A stretch of 64,000 nucleotides of DNA from Bdellovibrionota bacterium. Lineage in GTDB: Bacteria > Bdellovibrionota_C > UBA2361 > OMII01. A program made the position numbers and the translations under genes. Below, piece after piece: positions 1 through 62,420 of this stretch (position 1 is the first letter of the stretch; the number at the start of each line of letters is the position of its first letter). Where the stretch lies: the NCBI GenBank assembly GCA_044345405.1, contig JBIJBE010000003.1, positions 8,427-72,426 on the forward strand, in the 5' to 3' direction. The notes beneath the pieces are model-generated. The model ran no database searches. It had not been told where the DNA came from and was given only the letters and a program-made list of their open reading frames with translations.

Positions 1-446
1 GTTGGAAATGGGGGGGGCTGCGATTTGAGCCTGGGTTCGGTATTCGGACGTTTACGTGCACATGCACGTAAACGTGAACGTACCCGTGCCCCATTTTCGC
101 AGGGAGCTTAAAACGAATGGCGTAGACTTGCTCCGCAGGCGCTTTGAGCGTCTTTGATTCGCTATCAAACGAGAAAGAAGTTTTTTCGGGTGCGTTCACG
201 TTCACGTTTACGAGCACGTTCACGTTGGAAATGGTGGGCAGCGATTGGAGCTTGGGTTCGGTATTCGGACGTGAACGTGCACATGCACGTAAACGTGAAC
301 GTACCCGTGCCCCATTTTCACAGGGAGCTCAAAACGAATGGCGTGGAATTGCTCCGCAGGCGCTTTGAGCGTCTTTGATTCGCTATCAATCGAGAAAGAA
401 GTTTTTTTCGGGTACGTTTACGTTCACGTTTACGAGCACGTTCACG
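1..446. repeat. Two tandem copies of a ~223-bp unit (1-222 and 223-446, ~93% identical). Each holds a 26-bp palindrome CGTTTACGTGCA-ca-TGCACGTAAACG and runs of GTTCACG/CGTGAAC heptamers. The array may continue upstream of the window.
   Basis: The two units align directly in the sequence. The six-frame ORFs across it (FTFTFTSTFT and similar) are low-complexity repeat translations. Confidence 0.85.
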
Positions 447-475
447 TGTGTTCCAGGGGCGTGGACGTCCCACCC

Positions 476-3400
476 CTACGCCTTCACTAACCCCACCGTG
501 ATCTCGCCACCATCTACCTTCACTGAGCGCTCAATAAGCGCCTTCGAAAGTGATGACGTGACCTCAACGCACAGCGTCTCAGACTTCACATACTCCTCAT
601 GCGCCTTCAAAAGACCATCTGCCCCGCGGATAGACAGTTTAATTCGATCCGCGATGTGGAGGTCAGCCTCCTTACGCATATCTTGAATCTCTCGCACCAG
701 GTCACGAGCTTGTCCCTCAAGGGCGAGCTCTGGAGTTACGTTGGTATCGAGCGCGACGACGAAGCCGTTGCCTGATTCAACCGCGAGTCCTGGCTTACCA
801 GCGAATCCGACCTCAACCTCTCCTGGGTTAAGGGTGATATCGCCGATCTTGATCGTGTTCTCGCCGATTACCTCAAACTCGCCGTTGCGTACCTTCTGAA
901 TCACCTCTTGGACCCGGGCGCCGAGGCGTGGTCCGAGCACACGAGCGTTTACCTTCGCGCTCAGGGTCGCGATAGAGGATGCGTCGGCCAAGAACTCAAT
1001 CGTCTTCACGTTAAGCTCTCCGCAGAGAACGGGGATGTACGGCTCAAGTTCAGCAGCGAGGTTCTCCTTCACCGCGACCTTCGCTGACGCGAGTGGGAGT
1101 CGCACCCGAAGCTTCTCGCGAGCCCGAACCGACAGGCCTGCCGACACCATCCCTCGGACGAGGTTTACCTGCTTCGACAGCTTGTCGTTGATCAATGATT
1201 CACGAACCGTTGGCCACTCGGTGAGGTGCACGCTGTCCTTAAAGCCAAGCCGCTCCCACACAAGCTCCGAGATAAATGGGCAGAGTGGGGCAAGCGTTTG
1301 CGATACGGTCTTCAACACATCAAAGAGCGTCGCGTAGAACGCGAGCTTCTCAGGAGAGCGTGGGTCGTCTGACCATACACGCTCGCGGCTCCGACGGATG
1401 TACCAGTTGTTGAGCGTATCGAGGAACGGCGAGAAGAGCCGCATCGCCTCATTTATTCGATAGGTCTCAAGGTAGTCGGTCGCGGAGCGCTTGAGAATCT
1501 CAGCCTCGGAGAGGATGAAGTGATCGAGCTCGCTCAGCTCCTTCCCTTCAAGTCCGATGTCCTGAGGAGAGATGTGGTCAACCTCGGTGTAGGAGGTGAA
1601 GAACGAGAGCGCGTTCCAGATAGGAAGCATGATCGACTTGACCATGCTCTCGACGCCTTCGTCACGGAACGAGAGATCCTCGATACCCACCGCCGAAGAA
1701 GTGAACAAATAAGCACGAAGAGCATCCGCCCCGTGCTTGTCCATAAGCTCAAACGGATCGGTGTAGTTCTTGAGACTCTTCGAGATCTTCTTTCCATCGG
1801 CCGCTAAGAGCGTTCCGTGAACCATGCAGTTCTTGAACGCGGGCTTGTCGAAGATAGCGGTCGAGAGTACGTGGAGGTAGTAGAACCAACATCGGATCTG
1901 TCCCGTGTACTCCACGATGAAGTCCGCTGGGAAATGAGAGAGGAAGTACTCAGCGTTCTCGAACGGATAGTGGAACTGTCCGTACGGCATTGAGCCCGAC
2001 TCGAACCAACAATCGAGAACCTCCGGCACGCGCGTGAGCTTCTTGCCGCAGGAGCACGGTACCTCGACGGCGTCGAGGTGCTCCTTGTGAAGATCGTTGA
2101 GCTTCACGCCAGCGTCCTTCTCAAGTTCGGAAACGATTCCGTACACCTTTTGATTGCCGCAATCGCCGCACTCCCAAACCGGGATAGGGGTCGCCCAGTA
2201 ACGGTTTCGAGAAAGGTTCCAGTCTCGCGCGTTCTCGAGCCAGTTGCCGAAACGCCCATGCTTCACGGTCGCTGGATACCAATTGATCTCCTCGTTCGTT
2301 TGAATGAGGCGGTCGCGGATCTGTTCGACCTTGAGGTACCACGCGTCGAGCGCCCGGTAGATCAATGGAGTGCGGCAACGCCAGCAGTGTGGGTAGTTAT
2401 GCTCGATCGTCTCATCGCGAACGACCTTGCCCTGCTCTTTAAGGAACTTGATGATCGCTGGATTCGCCTCGTGTACGTTCTGTCCGACGAAATCACTAAC
2501 CTCGGCGGTGAAACATCCGTTCGAGTCAACTGGATTCTTAACCTCGATCTGGTATTTGCGGCACGCCCAGTAGTCGTCCTCGCCGAAGGCTGGAGCCATG
2601 TGAACGATCCCGGTTCCATCCTCGGTCGACACGAAATCGGCCGAGATGATACGGAACGCGTTCTTATCGTCCTTAAAGTATGGAAGGAGTGGCTCGTAGG
2701 TAATCGTTTTGTCGACGAGTTCAGCGCCAGTGTGGGTCGCGATAATCGTTGCCTCTTTGCCGAGCTCTCGCTCGTAGCGCTTGAGCGCGTTCTTCGCGAG
2801 GAGTACTCGACCGACGTTCGTGTCGGCGATTACGTACTCGATCTCCTTTCCAACGGCGAGCGCTAGGTTTGATGGAAGGGTCCACGGCGTCGTCGTCCAG
2901 GCGAGCGCTGATACACCCTCCATCCCTTTAAGCGCGAATTTCACGGTGATGGTGCGGTCCTGCTTCGGGCGGGTGGCGTCATCAACACGGATCTCAGAGA
3001 AGGAGAGGGGAGTCTCGCATCGGTAGCAGTACGGCGCTACGCGGTAGTCCTTGTAGATGAGCCCCTTTTTGTGCGCTTCGCCGAAGGCCCAGATCACGGA
3101 TTCCATGAAGGAGCGGTCGAGGGTTTTATAGGCGTTGTCCATATCGACCCAGCGACCGATACGGTTGATGTACTTTTTCCAGGAGTCGTTAAACTCAGAG
3201 ACGATGCGACGACATTCAGCGTTAAACGCCGCGACGCCCACCGTGCGCTCGATCTCGCCTTTGTCTTTAAGTCCGAGGTTCTTCTCCGCGATCGTCTCGA
3301 TCGGCAATCCGTGACAATCCCATCCCCACGTTCGTGGTACATGGTACCCTCGCATCGTTTTGTAGCGTCCGACGACATCCTTCAGGATGGAGACGAAGAT

Positions 3401-3589
3401 AGTGCCGTGGTGGGGGCTTCCGGTTGGGAAAGGCGGGCCGTCATACAGGATGAACTCCGGCTTGGTAGCGTTCTCGGTGACTGAGCGTTGGAAGGTGTTC
3501 TCTCGTTGCCACCGTTCGACGACTCCGTTCTCAAGTGCGGGAAGGTTTGGACGGGACTCAACCTTACGGAAGGTGTTCTCTTGGCTCAT
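476..3589 (-). CDS. ileS: Isoleucyl-tRNA synthetase, type 2 (eukaryote/archaeal-like, 1037 aa)
   Basis: Full-length ORF with the class I aaRS HIGH region (PTGSPHHGT), the WDCHGLP motif typical of type-2 IleRS, and editing and anticodon-binding regions. Confidence 0.95.
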   Translation of the reverse strand: MSQENTFRKVESRPNLPALENGVVERWQRENTFQRSVTENATKPEFILYDGPPFPTGSPHHGTIFVSILKDVVGRYKTMRGYHVPRTWGWDCHGLPIETIAEKNLGLKDKGEIERTVGVAAFNAECRRIVSEFNDSWKKYINRIGRWVDMDNAYKTLDRSFMESVIWAFGEAHKKGLIYKDYRVAPYCYRCETPLSFSEIRVDDATRPKQDRTITVKFALKGMEGVSALAWTTTPWTLPSNLALAVGKEIEYVIADTNVGRVLLAKNALKRYERELGKEATIIATHTGAELVDKTITYEPLLPYFKDDKNAFRIISADFVSTEDGTGIVHMAPAFGEDDYWACRKYQIEVKNPVDSNGCFTAEVSDFVGQNVHEANPAIIKFLKEQGKVVRDETIEHNYPHCWRCRTPLIYRALDAWYLKVEQIRDRLIQTNEEINWYPATVKHGRFGNWLENARDWNLSRNRYWATPIPVWECGDCGNQKVYGIVSELEKDAGVKLNDLHKEHLDAVEVPCSCGKKLTRVPEVLDCWFESGSMPYGQFHYPFENAEYFLSHFPADFIVEYTGQIRCWFYYLHVLSTAIFDKPAFKNCMVHGTLLAADGKKISKSLKNYTDPFELMDKHGADALRAYLFTSSAVGIEDLSFRDEGVESMVKSIMLPIWNALSFFTSYTEVDHISPQDIGLEGKELSELDHFILSEAEILKRSATDYLETYRINEAMRLFSPFLDTLNNWYIRRSRERVWSDDPRSPEKLAFYATLFDVLKTVSQTLAPLCPFISELVWERLGFKDSVHLTEWPTVRESLINDKLSKQVNLVRGMVSAGLSVRAREKLRVRLPLASAKVAVKENLAAELEPYIPVLCGELNVKTIEFLADASSIATLSAKVNARVLGPRLGARVQEVIQKVRNGEFEVIGENTIKIGDITLNPGEVEVGFAGKPGLAVESGNGFVVALDTNVTPELALEGQARDLVREIQDMRKEADLHIADRIKLSIRGADGLLKAHEEYVKSETLCVEVTSSLSKALIERSVKVDGGEITVGLVKA

Positions 3590-3737
3590 GTAGGTCCTGT
3601 GCCGATAGCCGGCTCATAGAGGGTTTTTAGCCCTTCTATAGTGCCGAATTATGGTGGGGGAGTAAACCCGCCGAACTGACCGGAAGGGCAGCTAAGGTGC
3701 TGTCTTCGTTGGCCTGTTCTAGAGGATTCAGAGGTCC

Positions 3738-4205
3738 CTACTTATTGAGTCGCCGCAGCGCGATCTTCACCGAATGGGGCGCTGGATTCACGAGCTGATC
3801 TCCGATGACCACCTGTGGAAGTGCGCTGGAGCCTGATACCCTCTCAGCTTGGACGCGCAACGCCGCCGCGGCTTGGTTGGCGTCGATGTTTTGCTCCTCG
3901 AAGGGGATACCAAGATCCTTGAGGGTGCCGGTCAGGGTTGAGCACGACGGGCAGGTCGACGCCACGAGGATGATCGGTTTGGCGTACGAAAACTGCATCC
4001 CGTTTTGGTCGTAGAACTGCTGCGCCTCTTGAGCGGACCGAAAGAGGGGCACTGAGCTTTTTCGCGGTGAAAAGCTCATCATTCCGATGCCCAGCACTAC
4101 GAGCACCAGGGGCAGGGTGCTGACCGATATCTCCATGATTGTGTCGAAGATGTGCGCGCGTCGCGCGCGTTTGGCCTTGGGTTCCTCGGTGTGCATCGCT
4201 GTCAC
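3738..4205 (-). CDS. Membrane-anchored glutaredoxin/thioredoxin-fold protein (CPSC active site)
   Basis: N-terminal TM helix (LPLVLVVLGIGMM), a STCPSCS redox motif and a Grx-like LPQVVIGDQLV motif. It lies directly upstream of ileS on the same strand. Confidence 0.55.
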   Translation of the reverse strand: MTAMHTEEPKAKRARRAHIFDTIMEISVSTLPLVLVVLGIGMMSFSPRKSSVPLFRSAQEAQQFYDQNGMQFSYAKPIILVASTCPSCSTLTGTLKDLGIPFEEQNIDANQAAAALRVQAERVSGSSALPQVVIGDQLVNPAPHSVKIALRRLNK

Positions 4206-4395
4206 TGTAGCTCCTGAGGGGGTCTCTTTCCCCGCGTATATTTAGACACCGTGGAGGTCGGTATCGTTGCGGGATCGCTTGATGATTTGGTGCTTCTTTA
4301 GGTTTGGAATTGGGGGTTTGGGAGGGTAGTGGCCGGGGTGGCGCGGTAACCACCTGAAATGGCGCAGGCGCTTACTATGGAGCGGCTAGCACACA

Positions 4396-4519
4396 GGGAG
4401 GGCGACCGTCCCCGGTCGCCGAAATGTTTACGTGTCGTACACTACATTCGACCTATGCGAACACGGCGGTCGAGGACCCCACTTCGCTACGCTACGAGGG
4501 ACATGCTGACCGCCCTCCC
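4396..4519. repeat. Copy A of a dispersed REP/MITE-like palindromic element (GGGAGGGCGACCGTCCCCGGTCGCCGAAA ... CTTCGCTACGCTACGAGGGACATGCTGACCGCCCTCCC)
   Basis: Terminal inverted repeats GGGAGGGCGACC / GACCGCCCTCCC. The same family recurs at 17480, 33027, 43003, 49027 and 50298. This copy sits 27 bp downstream of the bioB stop. Confidence 0.8.
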
Positions 4520-34405: not shown

Positions 34406-35482
34406 ATGAGAAAAATATTTATACGGCACGCACTCGCCGTTACATCAGTAGTGCTTCTCACCTCCCAACCCGCGAACGCCTGTGATGTTTGCGCGCTCTA
34501 TTCGGCGGTTCAAAATGAGAGCCCGGTTGAGAACGCGTTTCGGCTCAGTCTTGCTGAGCAGTTCACCGCGCTAGATCGAATTAAGACGGATGGCCACTAT
34601 ACCGAGAACACGTACAACCAGTTCCTTAAAAGCTCGGTGACGCAGGTTTCGGGTCAATACGACGTGAGCAACTCGACCTCCCTTCAGTTGGTGATGCCAG
34701 TTGTGAGTAGAACGTGGCGTCGAATTGAGGATGAAAAAGTTCAACGTGGAAGCGACGCGGGAATCGGGGATATTACCCTGTTGGCTCACTACGTTCCTGT
34801 GAACTATTCGAACGGCAACCTGCTCGCTCGCCTTCGTATGTTCGGTGGCGTTGAGCTCCCAACCGGAGACGCGCACTACCTCGGCGAGGAGAGCGCCCCA
34901 GGACACCACGGTGACGAAGGGGATTCTCACGGTGGGGAGGAGGAGGATTCTCACGGGGATTCCCAGGAGGATAGGGGACACCACTCCTTCACCCAGAAGC
35001 ACAACGGTACGGTTCACGCTCCGCAATCAGCGAACGCTATTCACGGTCACGATATTACCCTTGGATCCGGCTCGTGGGACTTCCCACTCGGAGCGGGTCT
35101 CTATACCCAGTGGAAGGGCTTCATCTGGCAGACCGATGCTCAATACACCATTCGCACGGAAGGTGCCTTTGACTACACCTTCGCCAACGACTGGGCATGG
35201 GCAACCGCGGTTGGTCACTACCTCTACCTTGAGGATGACGCGCAGGTCGCTCTCCGAGCTCGTCTCTCGGGGCAGTACAAGGGATACGATACCGGAAGTG
35301 GTGGCGTTCGGTACGACGACACCGCGTTTAACGGCACCTTTTTAGGTCCTGAGGTGACAGCGCTCGCAACCAATAAGTGGTTCGGCGTTCTCGGATACGA
35401 CCTTCCGATTGAGGTGCACAACTCAGATACCCAGATTACGCCAAGCTGGCGGATTAGAGCTGCTCTAACCTATCGGTTTTAA
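34406..35482 (+). CDS. Outer-membrane beta-barrel protein with a His/Asp/Glu-rich loop (HHGDEGDSHGGEEEDSHGDSQEDRGHH). It is a putative metal-binding or transport OMP.
   Basis: Signal peptide, alternating amphipathic beta-strands and a C-terminal ...LTYRF aromatic end typical of beta-barrel OMPs. Confidence 0.55.
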   Translation: MRKIFIRHALAVTSVVLLTSQPANACDVCALYSAVQNESPVENAFRLSLAEQFTALDRIKTDGHYTENTYNQFLKSSVTQVSGQYDVSNSTSLQLVMPVVSRTWRRIEDEKVQRGSDAGIGDITLLAHYVPVNYSNGNLLARLRMFGGVELPTGDAHYLGEESAPGHHGDEGDSHGGEEEDSHGDSQEDRGHHSFTQKHNGTVHAPQSANAIHGHDITLGSGSWDFPLGAGLYTQWKGFIWQTDAQYTIRTEGAFDYTFANDWAWATAVGHYLYLEDDAQVALRARLSGQYKGYDTGSGGVRYDDTAFNGTFLGPEVTALATNKWFGVLGYDLPIEVHNSDTQITPSWRIRAALTYRF

Positions 35483-35506: not shown

Positions 35507-36955
35507 TTGACGGAGCCGGGGGAAGCCGCAAGTATAGGCCCATATTCGTTTCAGCGGCGTACAGGGAGATTAGGGATGTCAGAGCAGGTGCGAAAGCTGC
35601 CTCAGCAGGAAGCGGTTCAGGGTGAGGCAGCTGTTCACGGCGAGGCCGCGGCGCGAGAGCTCCCGGTGAAGGATATTCGCTCCCTCATGACCGAGATCCG
35701 AGAGCGAATCAAGGCGGACGTCGAGGGAAACCGAGACAAGCATCGCGAGCTCTCTCGCACAGCTCCCCGCTTCGCTAAGGACGGGAACGTGAGGGTTGGA
35801 GACCTTCAACACTCAGAGGAGCTCCGGTTCGTTAATCAGAACTACGCCTACGACTCTCAGCTCACCCCAGCGGTGATCCCAAGCCACCGACGTGGACCTC
35901 TCGGGAAGCTTGTTCCCCTCTTTAAACGGGTCTCCCGCAAGATCGTTCGTAAACTCTTCCTCGCCGATTACCTCAACGCTGAGCGCGCGTTCTCGGAGCA
36001 CCTTGTTCGGCATCTGAATGAGATCGGTCGATATATCGACGCGCGGGACAACGACGTGATGCGAAAGATCGATCGGATCGATGATGAGAAGAGCGCGGCG
36101 ATCCTCGCCTTGCAGCAGGATATGCAGTCCCTCACACGGGATCGTATCGGCGCCCTTGATGAGATGATTCGAGGGTTAGAGGGAATCGTCAACAACTTCC
36201 CTCGCTACACCGATCCGAATCCGCCGCGTGTTCAAGAGAGCTCGCAACCGCTCACAGTTCCCGATCCTTCCTACCTCCTCCTTGAGAATCGGTATCGGGG
36301 AGGGGAGGCTGAGATTGAGCGCCGTCTCTCGATCTATCCTGAGATCTTTAAAACAGCTCCCGCGACGGTGCTTGAGATGGGATCCGGTCGGGGCGAGCTT
36401 CAGCGCCTCTTTAAGAAAGCGGGCGTTCCATCGTACGGCGTTGATCTCGACACCGTGATGGTGAATGTTGCGAACGCCGCTGGGTGCGATACGAAGTTTG
36501 GTGATGGGATTGCGCATCTTCGTTCGCTTCCCGACGCGTCCCTCGGCGGTCTTATCGCGATTCAGGTGGTAGAGCATCTCACCCGCTCGCAGTTGATGGA
36601 GTTATGCGAGCTCGCGAAGCGAAAATTAAAGCCGGGATCGAAGATCGTGTTTGAGACGATCAACCCGCAATCGCTCCTCGCGCTCTCCTCAAACTATTTC
36701 CGCGATCCAACCCACATCTGGCCGATGCATCCCGATACCCTCGGATATACGGCGACCCTTGCAGGTTTAAAGATCGTAGAGACCCGGTACCTCTCGCCGG
36801 TGGCGCCGAATCATCTTCTCAAGGAGATTCCGGTCGATCCGAACCATCCTCCTACCGTGGTCGATACCGTTCACCGCATCAACCAGAACATCGAGCAGTT
36901 GAATCGTTTGATCTACGGCTTTCAGGACTACGCCCTGATCCTTGAGGTAGCGTAA
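35507..36955 (+). CDS. Class I SAM-dependent methyltransferase with a long N-terminal coiled-coil region. The alternative start is the ATG at 35576 (GGGAGATTAGGG RBS).
   Basis: SAM-binding motif I VLEMGSGRGEL plus motif II/III segments. Confidence 0.6.
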   Translation: MTEPGEAASIGPYSFQRRTGRLGMSEQVRKLPQQEAVQGEAAVHGEAAARELPVKDIRSLMTEIRERIKADVEGNRDKHRELSRTAPRFAKDGNVRVGDLQHSEELRFVNQNYAYDSQLTPAVIPSHRRGPLGKLVPLFKRVSRKIVRKLFLADYLNAERAFSEHLVRHLNEIGRYIDARDNDVMRKIDRIDDEKSAAILALQQDMQSLTRDRIGALDEMIRGLEGIVNNFPRYTDPNPPRVQESSQPLTVPDPSYLLLENRYRGGEAEIERRLSIYPEIFKTAPATVLEMGSGRGELQRLFKKAGVPSYGVDLDTVMVNVANAAGCDTKFGDGIAHLRSLPDASLGGLIAIQVVEHLTRSQLMELCELAKRKLKPGSKIVFETINPQSLLALSSNYFRDPTHIWPMHPDTLGYTATLAGLKIVETRYLSPVAPNHLLKEIPVDPNHPPTVVDTVHRINQNIEQLNRLIYGFQDYALILEVA

Positions 36956-61972: not shown

Positions 61973-62230
61973 TCAGTCCCGCTCAAAAAGCATCTGCTGT
62001 CGCTTCGGCTTGATCTGCACCGGCATTCCCGCGGGATAATTTCCAGAGAAGCAAGCGTCGCAATATTTACCATGGGTTGACTCAACGGCGCGGTAGAGCC
62101 CCTCGGTTGAGAGGTAGGCGAGGGAGTCAACACCTATGTACTCCGCGATCTCCTCAATGGTGTGCTTGGAGGCGATAAGCTCGTGCTTATCGGGGGTATC
62201 GATACCGTAGTAGCACGGGTTCTTCGTCAC
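61973..62230 (-). pseudogene. purF: 3' remnant of amidophosphoribosyltransferase (purF), C-terminal ~85 aa only. It is truncated where the REP array begins.
   Basis: PurF C-terminal signature GIDTPDKHELIASKHTIEEIAEYIGVDSLAYLS...CDACFSGNYP (the 4Fe-4S Cys ligands). No upstream PurF sequence exists, since the fragment runs straight into the tandem repeats at 62223. Confidence 0.6.
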
Positions 62231-62387
62231 TGGTGCCAGGCTCTTTTTAAGCGTTTCGTCACTGGTTCGTCACTGGTGCCAGGCTCTTTCTGGTTCGTCA
62301 CTGGTGCCAGGCTCTTTTTAAGCTGCTCGTCACTGGTGCCAGGCTCTTTTTAAGCGTTTTCGTCACTGGTGCCAGGCTCTTTTTAAG
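62223..62387. repeat. Tandem array of five full copies plus one partial copy of a 29-32-bp REP-like unit (TCGTCACTGGTGCCAGGCTCTTTTTAAGC)
   Basis: Directly visible direct repeats. An inverted single copy (GAGCCTGGCACCAGTGAC) lies at 63591-63608 on the far side of the transposase gene. Confidence 0.9.
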
Positions 62388-62420
62388 CAACTCTCTGCCC
62401 CGTTCCCCGATTACACCTGC

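Follow-up and report, generated by a model that had tools for sequence, protein, structure and literature searches.

A gene-less hairpin array of phased ACGT hexamers beside ileS in a Bdellovibrionota bacterium, probably related to the arms of PF05635 cassettes

Introduction

Proteins of the PF05635 family have been known since 1993 from intervening sequences (IVSs) in rRNA genes and as Avd in diversity-generating retroelements; to our knowledge, stand-alone PF05635 genes have no known function. Here we analyse a 64,000-nt stretch of DNA from a Bdellovibrionota bacterium (assembly GCA_044345405.1, contig JBIJBE010000003.1, positions 8,427 to 72,426 of the forward strand), hereafter called the window, which opens with an array of two tandem repeat units (positions 1–446) built from inverted arms of phased ACGT-core hexamers. 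We put the probability at roughly 0.7 that this array is a gene-less, tandemly duplicated member of an undescribed hairpin-repeat family which elsewhere forms the arms of IVS-like cassettes carrying a PF05635 gene.

The IVS of Coxiella burnetii is a 428-nt selfish element with a PF05635 open reading frame (ORF) and a 28-bp terminal stem; RNase III cut this stem in vitro, and the termini of the excised IVS, as mapped by rapid amplification of cDNA ends, fall within it (PMC4990558). The elements described below recall the 23S rRNA IVSs of Leptospira and Coxiella in being small (0.4–0.7 kb), regarded as selfish, and organised as a PF05635 ORF within terminal inverted repeats, with a stem of 28 bp in Coxiella and ~39 bp here. 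They differ in that the window array and its related cassettes lie between or inside protein-coding operons rather than in a helix (9, 25 or 45) of an rRNA gene, and a search with Rfam found no rRNA match at the array or beside 11 related loci. The window copy, moreover, has no ORF, and the stems of our family consist of phased hexamers and occur in tandem clusters with many deleted copies.

REPINs are hairpin-forming doublets of repetitive extragenic palindromic (REP) sequences that stand in ordered tandem clusters flanking the gene for their REP-associated tyrosine transposase (RAYT; PMC3116915). The REP sequences and bacterial interspersed mosaic elements (BIMEs) of Escherichia coli and the REPIN-RAYT systems of Pseudomonas fluorescens share much with the present family: inverted hairpin doublets in extragenic positions, often at the 3′ ends of genes, arranged in ordered clusters with alternating conserved spacers, where clusters flank one small partner gene (PMC3116915) and gene-less copies disperse. 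One could therefore take the window array for a REP/BIME or REPIN cluster of the classical kind, moved by a RAYT (Y1/HUH) transposase, but we consider this quite unlikely. In the cases found, the gene flanked by arms was always that of a four-helix-bundle PF05635 protein and not a RAYT, although no systematic RAYT screen of the fetched loci was made, and each arm repeats a 6-nt unit over 39 nt instead of being a 20-nt palindrome with a head of the GTAG type. REP sequences are present in tens to hundreds of copies per genome; for the arms, one locus is seen in 74 kb of the window genome.

Three further types of repeat invite comparison. The Correia elements of Neisseria and the enterobacterial repetitive intergenic consensus (ERIC) sequences are 100–200-nt, non-coding, intergenic elements with long terminal inverted repeats, which are co-transcribed and form RNase-cleavable hairpins; they have no sequence similarity to the array, which has a 6-nt periodicity and a link to PF05635, and whose relatives provide a single candidate for a target duplication. 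The short tandemly repeated repetitive (STRR) heptamers of cyanobacteria are intergenic short-unit arrays of unknown function. They resemble our arrays in having a unit of 6–7 nt and an intergenic position, and on Nostoc and Aulosira plasmids inverted heptamer arrays abut PF05635 genes just like the ACGT hexamers; the units differ in sequence and in length, and identity of these PF05635-flanking heptamers with the classical STRR families is only possible. Finally, Fur boxes and the heptads of the omega repressor of plasmid pSM19035 are contiguous short units, in direct or inverted orientation, to which small proteins bind cooperatively; unlike such operators, the array has no adjacent promoter and no known binder, and it lies between convergent 3′ ends.

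Results

The array consists of inverted hexamer blocks with two alternating spacers. The first-pass annotation of the window, made from the sequence alone, had noted two ~93%-identical copies of a 223-bp unit at the window edge, just downstream of ileS, and a high density of one half-site in both orientations, and its observations are essentially right. The two units stand head to tail (lengths 223 and 221 nt; start-to-start spacing 221–223 nt) with 93% matches according to Tandem Repeats Finder (TRF) and 94% identity over a 175-nt core, and each holds four copies of GTTCACG/CGTGAAC and three of TTTACG/CGTAAA. What had gone unnoticed is that the units resolve into A and B blocks that are inverted with respect to each other and separated by two alternating spacers. 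The parts of the array and its immediate flank are as follows.

Positions 1–223, no strand: repeat unit 1, made up of junction spacer, A1, interior (100 nt) and B1; the sequence goes on upstream in contig L001
Positions 224–446, no strand: repeat unit 2, ~94% identical to unit 1, with 13–14 substitutions and two indels (2 nt and 1 nt)
Positions 48–86, forward strand: arm A1, ACGTTT ACGTGC ACATGC ACGTAA ACGTGA ACGTAC CCG; profile E = 5e-15
Positions 187–225, reverse strand: arm B1, in reverse complement ACGTGA ACGTGC TCGTAA ACGTGA ACGTGA ACGCAC CCG; profile E = 1e-16
Positions 269–307, forward strand: arm A2, with an imperfect palindrome copy (2 mismatches); profile E = 8e-16
Positions 409–447, reverse strand: arm B2, 85% complementary to A2; profile E = 2e-15
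Positions 87–186, no strand: interior of the hairpin of unit 1, 100 nt, between A1 and B1
Positions 308–408, no strand: interior of the hairpin of unit 2, 101 nt
Positions 226–268, no strand: junction spacer of ~43 nt separating B1 from A2; a second copy, window 1–47, separates B0 from A1
Positions 456–476, no strand: short GC-rich imperfect hairpin GGGGCGTGGACGTCCCACCCC, read from the sequence, abutting and overlapping the ileS stop codon
Positions 476–3589, reverse strand: ileS, for a 1037-aa type-2 isoleucyl-tRNA synthetase (IleRS); its 3′ end faces the array

Each block, of ~39 nt, is composed of six phased (A)CGT-R-M hexamers and ends in ACCCG, and A and B blocks are 77–85% reverse complements of one another (77–82% for B1 with A1 and A2). 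The array thus reads as alternately oriented arms B0, A1, B1, A2 and B2, in which the ~100-nt interior alternates with the ~43-nt junction. Both spacer types are themselves repeated at ~94% identity; with repeated rather than unique spacers and arms of alternating orientation, the array was rejected as a CRISPR locus. The core motif ACGT occurs 18 times in positions 1–446, against 1.26 expected from its density in the remaining window and a mean of 3.8 (maximum 13) in a first-order Markov simulation. All 18 copies keep a 6-nt phase within the four blocks, a pattern reproduced by no dinucleotide shuffle, and ACGTNNACGT occurs 10 times in the array and not once in the remaining 63.5 kb of the window. 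The perfect 26-bp palindrome earlier ascribed to each unit is present as such (12+2+12) at 49–74 in unit 1 only; its counterpart in unit 2 (270–295) has two arm mismatches and is 85% matched over 13-nt arms.

Upstream of the window, the identical 268-kb metagenome contig L001 allowed us to follow the array to its end. The further copies that had been suspected there amount to a partial one of ~0.2 unit (the B0 block and a short degenerate A block), with no further full unit; beyond it comes the stop codon of a 405-aa gene converging on ileS. In total the array has 2.2 copies (TRF), of which ~140 nt lie upstream of the window, and it occupies the 601-nt gap between the 3′ ends of the two convergent genes. 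Six metagenome contigs carry exactly the window's IleRS, and all are identical to the window wherever the region is covered; two of them, like the window itself, end within the repeat, which indicates an assembly break.

The arms recur in related genomes, where they flank PF05635 genes. A scan of species-representative genomes with a pattern requiring phased ACGT only returned 119 loci, and many of these, from Myxococcota and other phyla, are microsatellites of hexamers or hairpins. In a subset the match to the window arm runs over its full length, including the ACCCG end; this subset comes from two Lake Mendota Bdellovibrionota bins and several metagenome-assembled genomes (MAGs) that bear the label Proteobacteria or Pseudomonadota. 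A narrower arm pattern added 65 further metagenome contigs. A profile built from five arms of the locus, the four in the window and B0, which themselves score 54–61 bits, matched arms in related MAGs and metagenome contigs (L009, L018, L049, L050, L075, L077, L078, L098, L107 and L130–L189) at E = 1e-10 to 1e-14. Among the arm-bearing MAGs is JBDLRS, whose IleRS is 95% identical to that of the window. The repeat family to which the arms belong is interspersed in genomes of an as yet uncultured lineage from fresh water, labelled Pseudomonadota or Bdellovibrionota at NCBI.

These matches bear directly on the null explanation, already raised at first pass, of a neutral local minisatellite without relatives, produced by chance duplication of a palindrome-rich spacer. 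The array is the sole copy in 74 kb of genome, and its arms are no better kept between units than its spacers (~5% versus ~6% divergence), as a minisatellite would have it. Dozens of significant arm relatives, however, share the same organisation of six hexamers plus ACCCG and the same paired and clustered architecture, and they contradict an origin of this kind, which we regard as exceedingly unlikely.

Complete cassettes (L173 and L148) consist of an arm, 49 nt, a 115-aa ORF, ~10 nt and an inverted arm; their ORFs belong to PF05635 (E = 7e-21). Outside the arms, many copies have a further terminal inverted repeat of 27 nt, GGCTCATCGYGKWWTCGAGTGGGTAA, and the A/T-rich sequences around them are unrelated. 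Paired arms enclose interiors of graded length, namely 20, 46, 48, 96, 100 (the window), 115, 148, 203, ~250 and ~400 nt; in L132 and L160 the cassette gene has evidently suffered an internal deletion. A derivative with one and the same internal deletion was found in unrelated flanks, in copies 91–97% identical; because this derivative occupies several sites, gene-less copies proliferate. As regards the marks of miniature inverted-repeat transposable elements, there are deleted copies of such identity in different flanks and a single possible 8-bp target duplication (L144); the window locus shows no duplication, and its entire spacer is unlike that of relatives. A gene-less tandem cluster with two alternating spacers is seen in L171, and in L145, L201 and L197 a PF05635 ORF has whole hairpin units to its left and right; we infer that the window array could be a structure of the latter type minus its ORF. 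We considered whether left and right arms differ generally in the order of their hexamers; only one subfamily shows this.

Other repeats were encountered around these arms. In L130 a group II intron (2684–4476; Rfam RF00029, RF01999) ends 13 nt from an ACGT-arm hairpin. In L049, from a Lake Mendota Bdellovibrionota bin, a ~130-nt tandem repeat, GTAGTTACCAACG...GGCTAGG, surrounds an ACGT-arm hairpin (1–560). A second inverted-repeat family, CCTACATTCGGCAGTTGCGGGTCTGAAAATGGCGCATCTG..., is present in L078 (6950–7360), where it encloses a PF05635 remnant, and in L196 (1890–2080); in the 95% relative it fills the spacer that in the window is taken up by a HAD hydrolase gene.

The array is absent from close relatives with the same gene order. 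Relatives whose IleRS is 96%, 91% and 84% identical to that of the window keep ileS and the convergent 405-aa gene, separated by gaps of 116, 113 and 27 nt, respectively, and none of these gaps contains arms; ileS DNA identity to the window is ~77–85% across relatives and falls with IleRS identity. The 96% relative and a 94% relative, the latter without the 405-aa gene, have a different GC-rich 26-bp inverted repeat at the site (a long inverted repeat with ~26-nt arms, GGGAGGCCCGTCTCCTGACGGGCCGG..., lies downstream of ileS at the array's site in L191, 7118–7230, and L192, 7118–7230). One relative has a solo arm in the HAD–bioB spacer, and the corresponding window site is empty. On this comparison the array is most likely a lineage-specific insertion between two convergent genes. 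Relatives with the same gene order but no array, together with the arm family elsewhere, make spread followed by local duplication its most likely origin.

The position of the array, at two 3′ ends, raises the question of whether the host has adopted it as a bidirectional 3′-end element which stops read-through or shields both mRNAs from 3′ exonucleases, as REP/BIME sequences do in E. coli. The different inverted repeat held at this site by L191 and L192 hints that a hairpin may be needed there, and strong folding is predicted on both strands. No U-tract follows the stems, however, and no terminator-like site was scored in the array; 2.2 units in 600 nt far exceed a terminator's needs, and a 27-nt gap suffices in L194. 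Adoption of this sort is, in our estimation, unlikely.

The arms are conserved as sequence. Predicted folding of the array is far stronger than that of shuffled sequence on both strands (z = −8.5 and −9.2), as any inverted repeats would lead one to expect. Against Rfam the array produced only sub-threshold, miRNA-like palindrome matches. We examined covariation in 17 elements having both arms by permuting arm partners: 32.6 of 39 positions were paired within elements as compared with 33.7 of 39 between elements, the within-element mean being exceeded in every permutation. Nor was there a wobble bias among these arms, with 10 G-U versus 8 A-C mismatches on the gene-sense strand. The two tests were negative or uninformative. 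Selection for an RNA stem is unsupported, and the first-pass suggestion of a structured-RNA locus, taken as a conserved RNA gene, did not hold up.

The same results, with those on coding capacity, bear on the idea that the array is an independent gene for a structured small RNA (sRNA) or for a small protein (an Arg-rich RERARKRER or His-rich VHVHV peptide). In its favour are the fold z-scores of about −9, a 51-aa ORF (318–473, reverse strand) through arm B2 and the interior, and ACGT-hexamer tracts that would encode His-rich peptides at two unrelated loci, L036 and L066. It is nonetheless very unlikely: there is no Rfam match above noise, no promoter or terminator and no covariation, the array is absent from relatives, the ORF is frameshifted in unit 1, neither unit has a length divisible by three, and in several cassettes stop codons part the arm frame from the real ORF. 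The translation FTFTFTSTFT is as first described, and the view that it does not represent a protein was confirmed; we excluded coding potential of the units on account of their 1- and 2-nt indels, a frameshift (A6 versus A7) and a stop codon that is not shared (TAA versus CAA). An Arg-rich N-terminal extension of the PF05635 protein, read from the upstream arm, was likewise rejected, since the constant 49-nt distance explains the frame and stops intervene in several copies. In the two Sandaracinaceae MAGs mentioned above (L036, 2330–2442; L066, 4379–4491), the tracts lie in frames for the His-rich peptides HEDVHVHEDVHVH, and some phased ACGT tracts are therefore possibly coding.

A logo of 46 unique arms confirms the six-hexamer pattern, with 1.6–1.9 bits per position in the CGT core, while the two variable positions of each hexamer are almost always GC, GA, AC or AA. 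The arms thus act as conserved sequence arrays, similar to transposon ends or binding sites, and not as a freely co-varying RNA helix, although recent common descent would yield the same picture of conservation. Such conservation is also what one would expect if the hexamers were cooperative half-sites for a protein on double-stranded DNA, in which case the array might be an operator or a centromere-like or nucleoid-organising site. Arms kept as sequence rather than as compensating pairs, a strong core with restricted variable positions, the direct repeats that Myxococcota arrays can form and the change of repeat unit with PF05635 lineage (hexamers or two different heptamers) would all be consistent with binding. 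Against it, the array sits where two convergent genes end, lacks a promoter-like site, is missing in relatives with the same gene order and has no adjacent DNA-binding gene in the window, and its 6-bp period would place successive sites on nearly opposite faces of the helix. We hold a binding array of this type to be possible but rather doubtful. In the narrower form proposed at first pass, a transcription-factor array regulating the neighbouring genes, it is not supported, in view of the convergent 3′ ends, the lack of a promoter-like site and the absence of the array in relatives with 84–96% IleRS identity; that reading, a transcription-factor array or structured RNA, was only partly right.

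Short-tandem-repeat arms accompany PF05635 genes in several lineages. Five of the 119 hexamer-pattern loci have a PF05635-like ORF within ~0.35 kb of the array, and every PF05635-like ORF in the ~1.1 Mb of fetched DNA adjoins an array; when six of these ORFs were checked against Pfam, five exceeded the curated threshold. For a reverse test we chose four PF05635 genes of the clade only for their long contigs (proteins 53–65% identical to that of L173), and ACGT-hexamer arms were present at all four. At L199 (1432–1908) a PF05635 cassette with 33–39-nt ACGT-hexamer arms lies between sensor kinase and response-regulator genes, on one strand, and is an IVS-like insertion inside a two-component operon. 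The Myxococcota elements among the five loci have (ACGTCC)n or (ACGTGG)n arrays and terminal repeats of their own. A Myxococcota genome, CBDCGT01, has a repeated element of ~0.9 kb (L079, 5240–6030; L019, 2100–3050) in which terminal inverted repeats of 19 nt, TAGAGCACCGAAYGRGTAA, are combined with a (ACGTCC)n array of 130 nt, most of it in direct orientation, a ~330-nt conserved GC-rich non-coding stretch without an Rfam match and a PF05635-like ORF.

Beyond hexamers, PF05635 genes on plasmids of Aulosira and Nostoc are abutted by inverted arms of tandem heptamers, (GTCAGGA)n, and a PF05635 gene on an IMG/VR contig shows the same inverted-arm layout with (AGTGAGA)n heptamers.

L202 645–1057; L203 624–1078; L204 522–1064: heptamer-arm PF05635 loci (cyanobacterial plasmids, viral contig)

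Compared across these loci, arms of short tandem repeats seem to be a general trait of PF05635 cassettes, the repeat unit differing from lineage to lineage. Literature searches on the family name, the repeat sequence and STRR found no paper describing PF05635 genes linked to tandem-repeat arms, but their coverage was incomplete and a prior description is possible; the link appears to be undescribed.

Other features of the window genome are mentioned for completeness. The first 4682 nt of L001, ~5–10 kb upstream of ileS, carry type III secretion or flagellar-type genes (FHIPEP, FliMN_C, YscJ/FliF) and a sigma-70-family factor, with a collagen-repeat protein nearby. A separate tandem array at window 62223–62388 has a 32-nt unit, TTCGTCACTGGTGCCAGGCTCTTTTTAAGCGT, in ~4.9 copies with 73–88% matches and is unrelated to the ACGT arms. 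Short tandem repeats of 12, 18 and 24 nt (TRF) at 34907–34972 and 35607–35651 are probably within coding sequence.

Discussion

We have described an array of phased ACGT hexamers at the 3′ end of ileS and favour its interpretation as a gene-less, tandemly duplicated offshoot of the family that arms IVS-like PF05635 cassettes. This interpretation draws on the homology of the arms, the architecture of the family, the absence of the array in close relatives and the spread of deleted copies elsewhere. Under such a scheme, a selfish element with the habits of both an IVS and a REPIN would have spread into the gap between the two convergent genes and then been duplicated locally, its coding capacity being lost on the way. 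In transcripts that run on from either ileS or the 405-aa gene, the arms would form stems of ~39 bp that are 80–85% paired, and these could act as IVS stems do, as substrates for RNase III, or as barriers to 3′ exonucleases, in either case defining mRNA 3′ ends. Long stems at the 3′ ends of both mRNAs are the most plausible effect on the host; a host function is unproven. The phased hexamers, for their part, may be the recognition units of a protein supplied in trans, for which a PF05635 protein would be the prime candidate.

Several results weigh against this interpretation. At the window locus only the arms are demonstrably homologous to the cassettes, and descent from a complete cassette is suggested by the graded series of interiors. 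Neither the 100-nt interior nor the junction spacer has a significant match outside the locus or to parts of the cassettes in nhmmer searches, and profiles of cassette interiors and outer termini found no match in the window; a likeness by eye of the interior and junction to the 3′ end of the cassette gene and to its outer terminus was withdrawn when nhmmer searches with single sequences and with profiles proved negative. In the 64-kb window and the extra 10 kb of L001, tblastn with two cassette proteins found no PF05635 ORF (nothing better than E = 1), and profile and fuzzy-pattern searches of the window and L001 found no outer terminal repeat. The same 74 kb hold no second arm locus, while related MAGs have several arm loci each, with contig breaks at arms. 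A scan of the array for promoters and terminators gave no promoter-like and no terminator-like site, and the missing covariation and wobble bias leave the stems proposed above without a sign of selection as RNA. No transposase has been identified for the arms, the candidate target duplication is single, and the arrays beside PF05635 genes of Myxococcota are mostly direct, not inverted, repeats.

If the hexamers do have a binder, then a live idea, drawn from the sequence comparisons, is that it may be the cassette's own four-helix-bundle protein rather than a host transcription factor. One could envision, more broadly, that PF05635 proteins and arms of 6–7-nt repeats are widespread partners in the way that RAYTs and REPINs are. 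The protein would read its own arms, as DNA or as RNA, and promote their spread or maintenance; gene-less arrays such as that of the window would be non-autonomous progeny, and rRNA IVSs would be copies that landed in rRNA helices. The unit would change with lineage, being (A)CGTRM in lineages of the Bdellovibrionota and Myxococcota type and GTCAGGA or AGTGAGA heptamers elsewhere. We advance this tentatively, as a possibility that falls well short of being probable.

Taken alone, the array is one more intergenic cluster of hairpin repeats, probably selfish or neutral, that breaks assemblies. Inverted short-tandem-repeat arms around PF05635 genes, however, occur in Myxococcota and soil lineages as well as in the clade labelled Bdellovibrionota/Pseudomonadota, and cyanobacterial plasmids and one viral contig have them too. 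The arms, which also spread without the gene, give PF05635 proteins a concrete candidate partner in cis for binding, RNase III processing and mobility, and IVSs are thereby linked to dispersed repeats of the REPIN or STRR type. The most interesting possibility may be that a protein acting in trans reads the phased hexamers.

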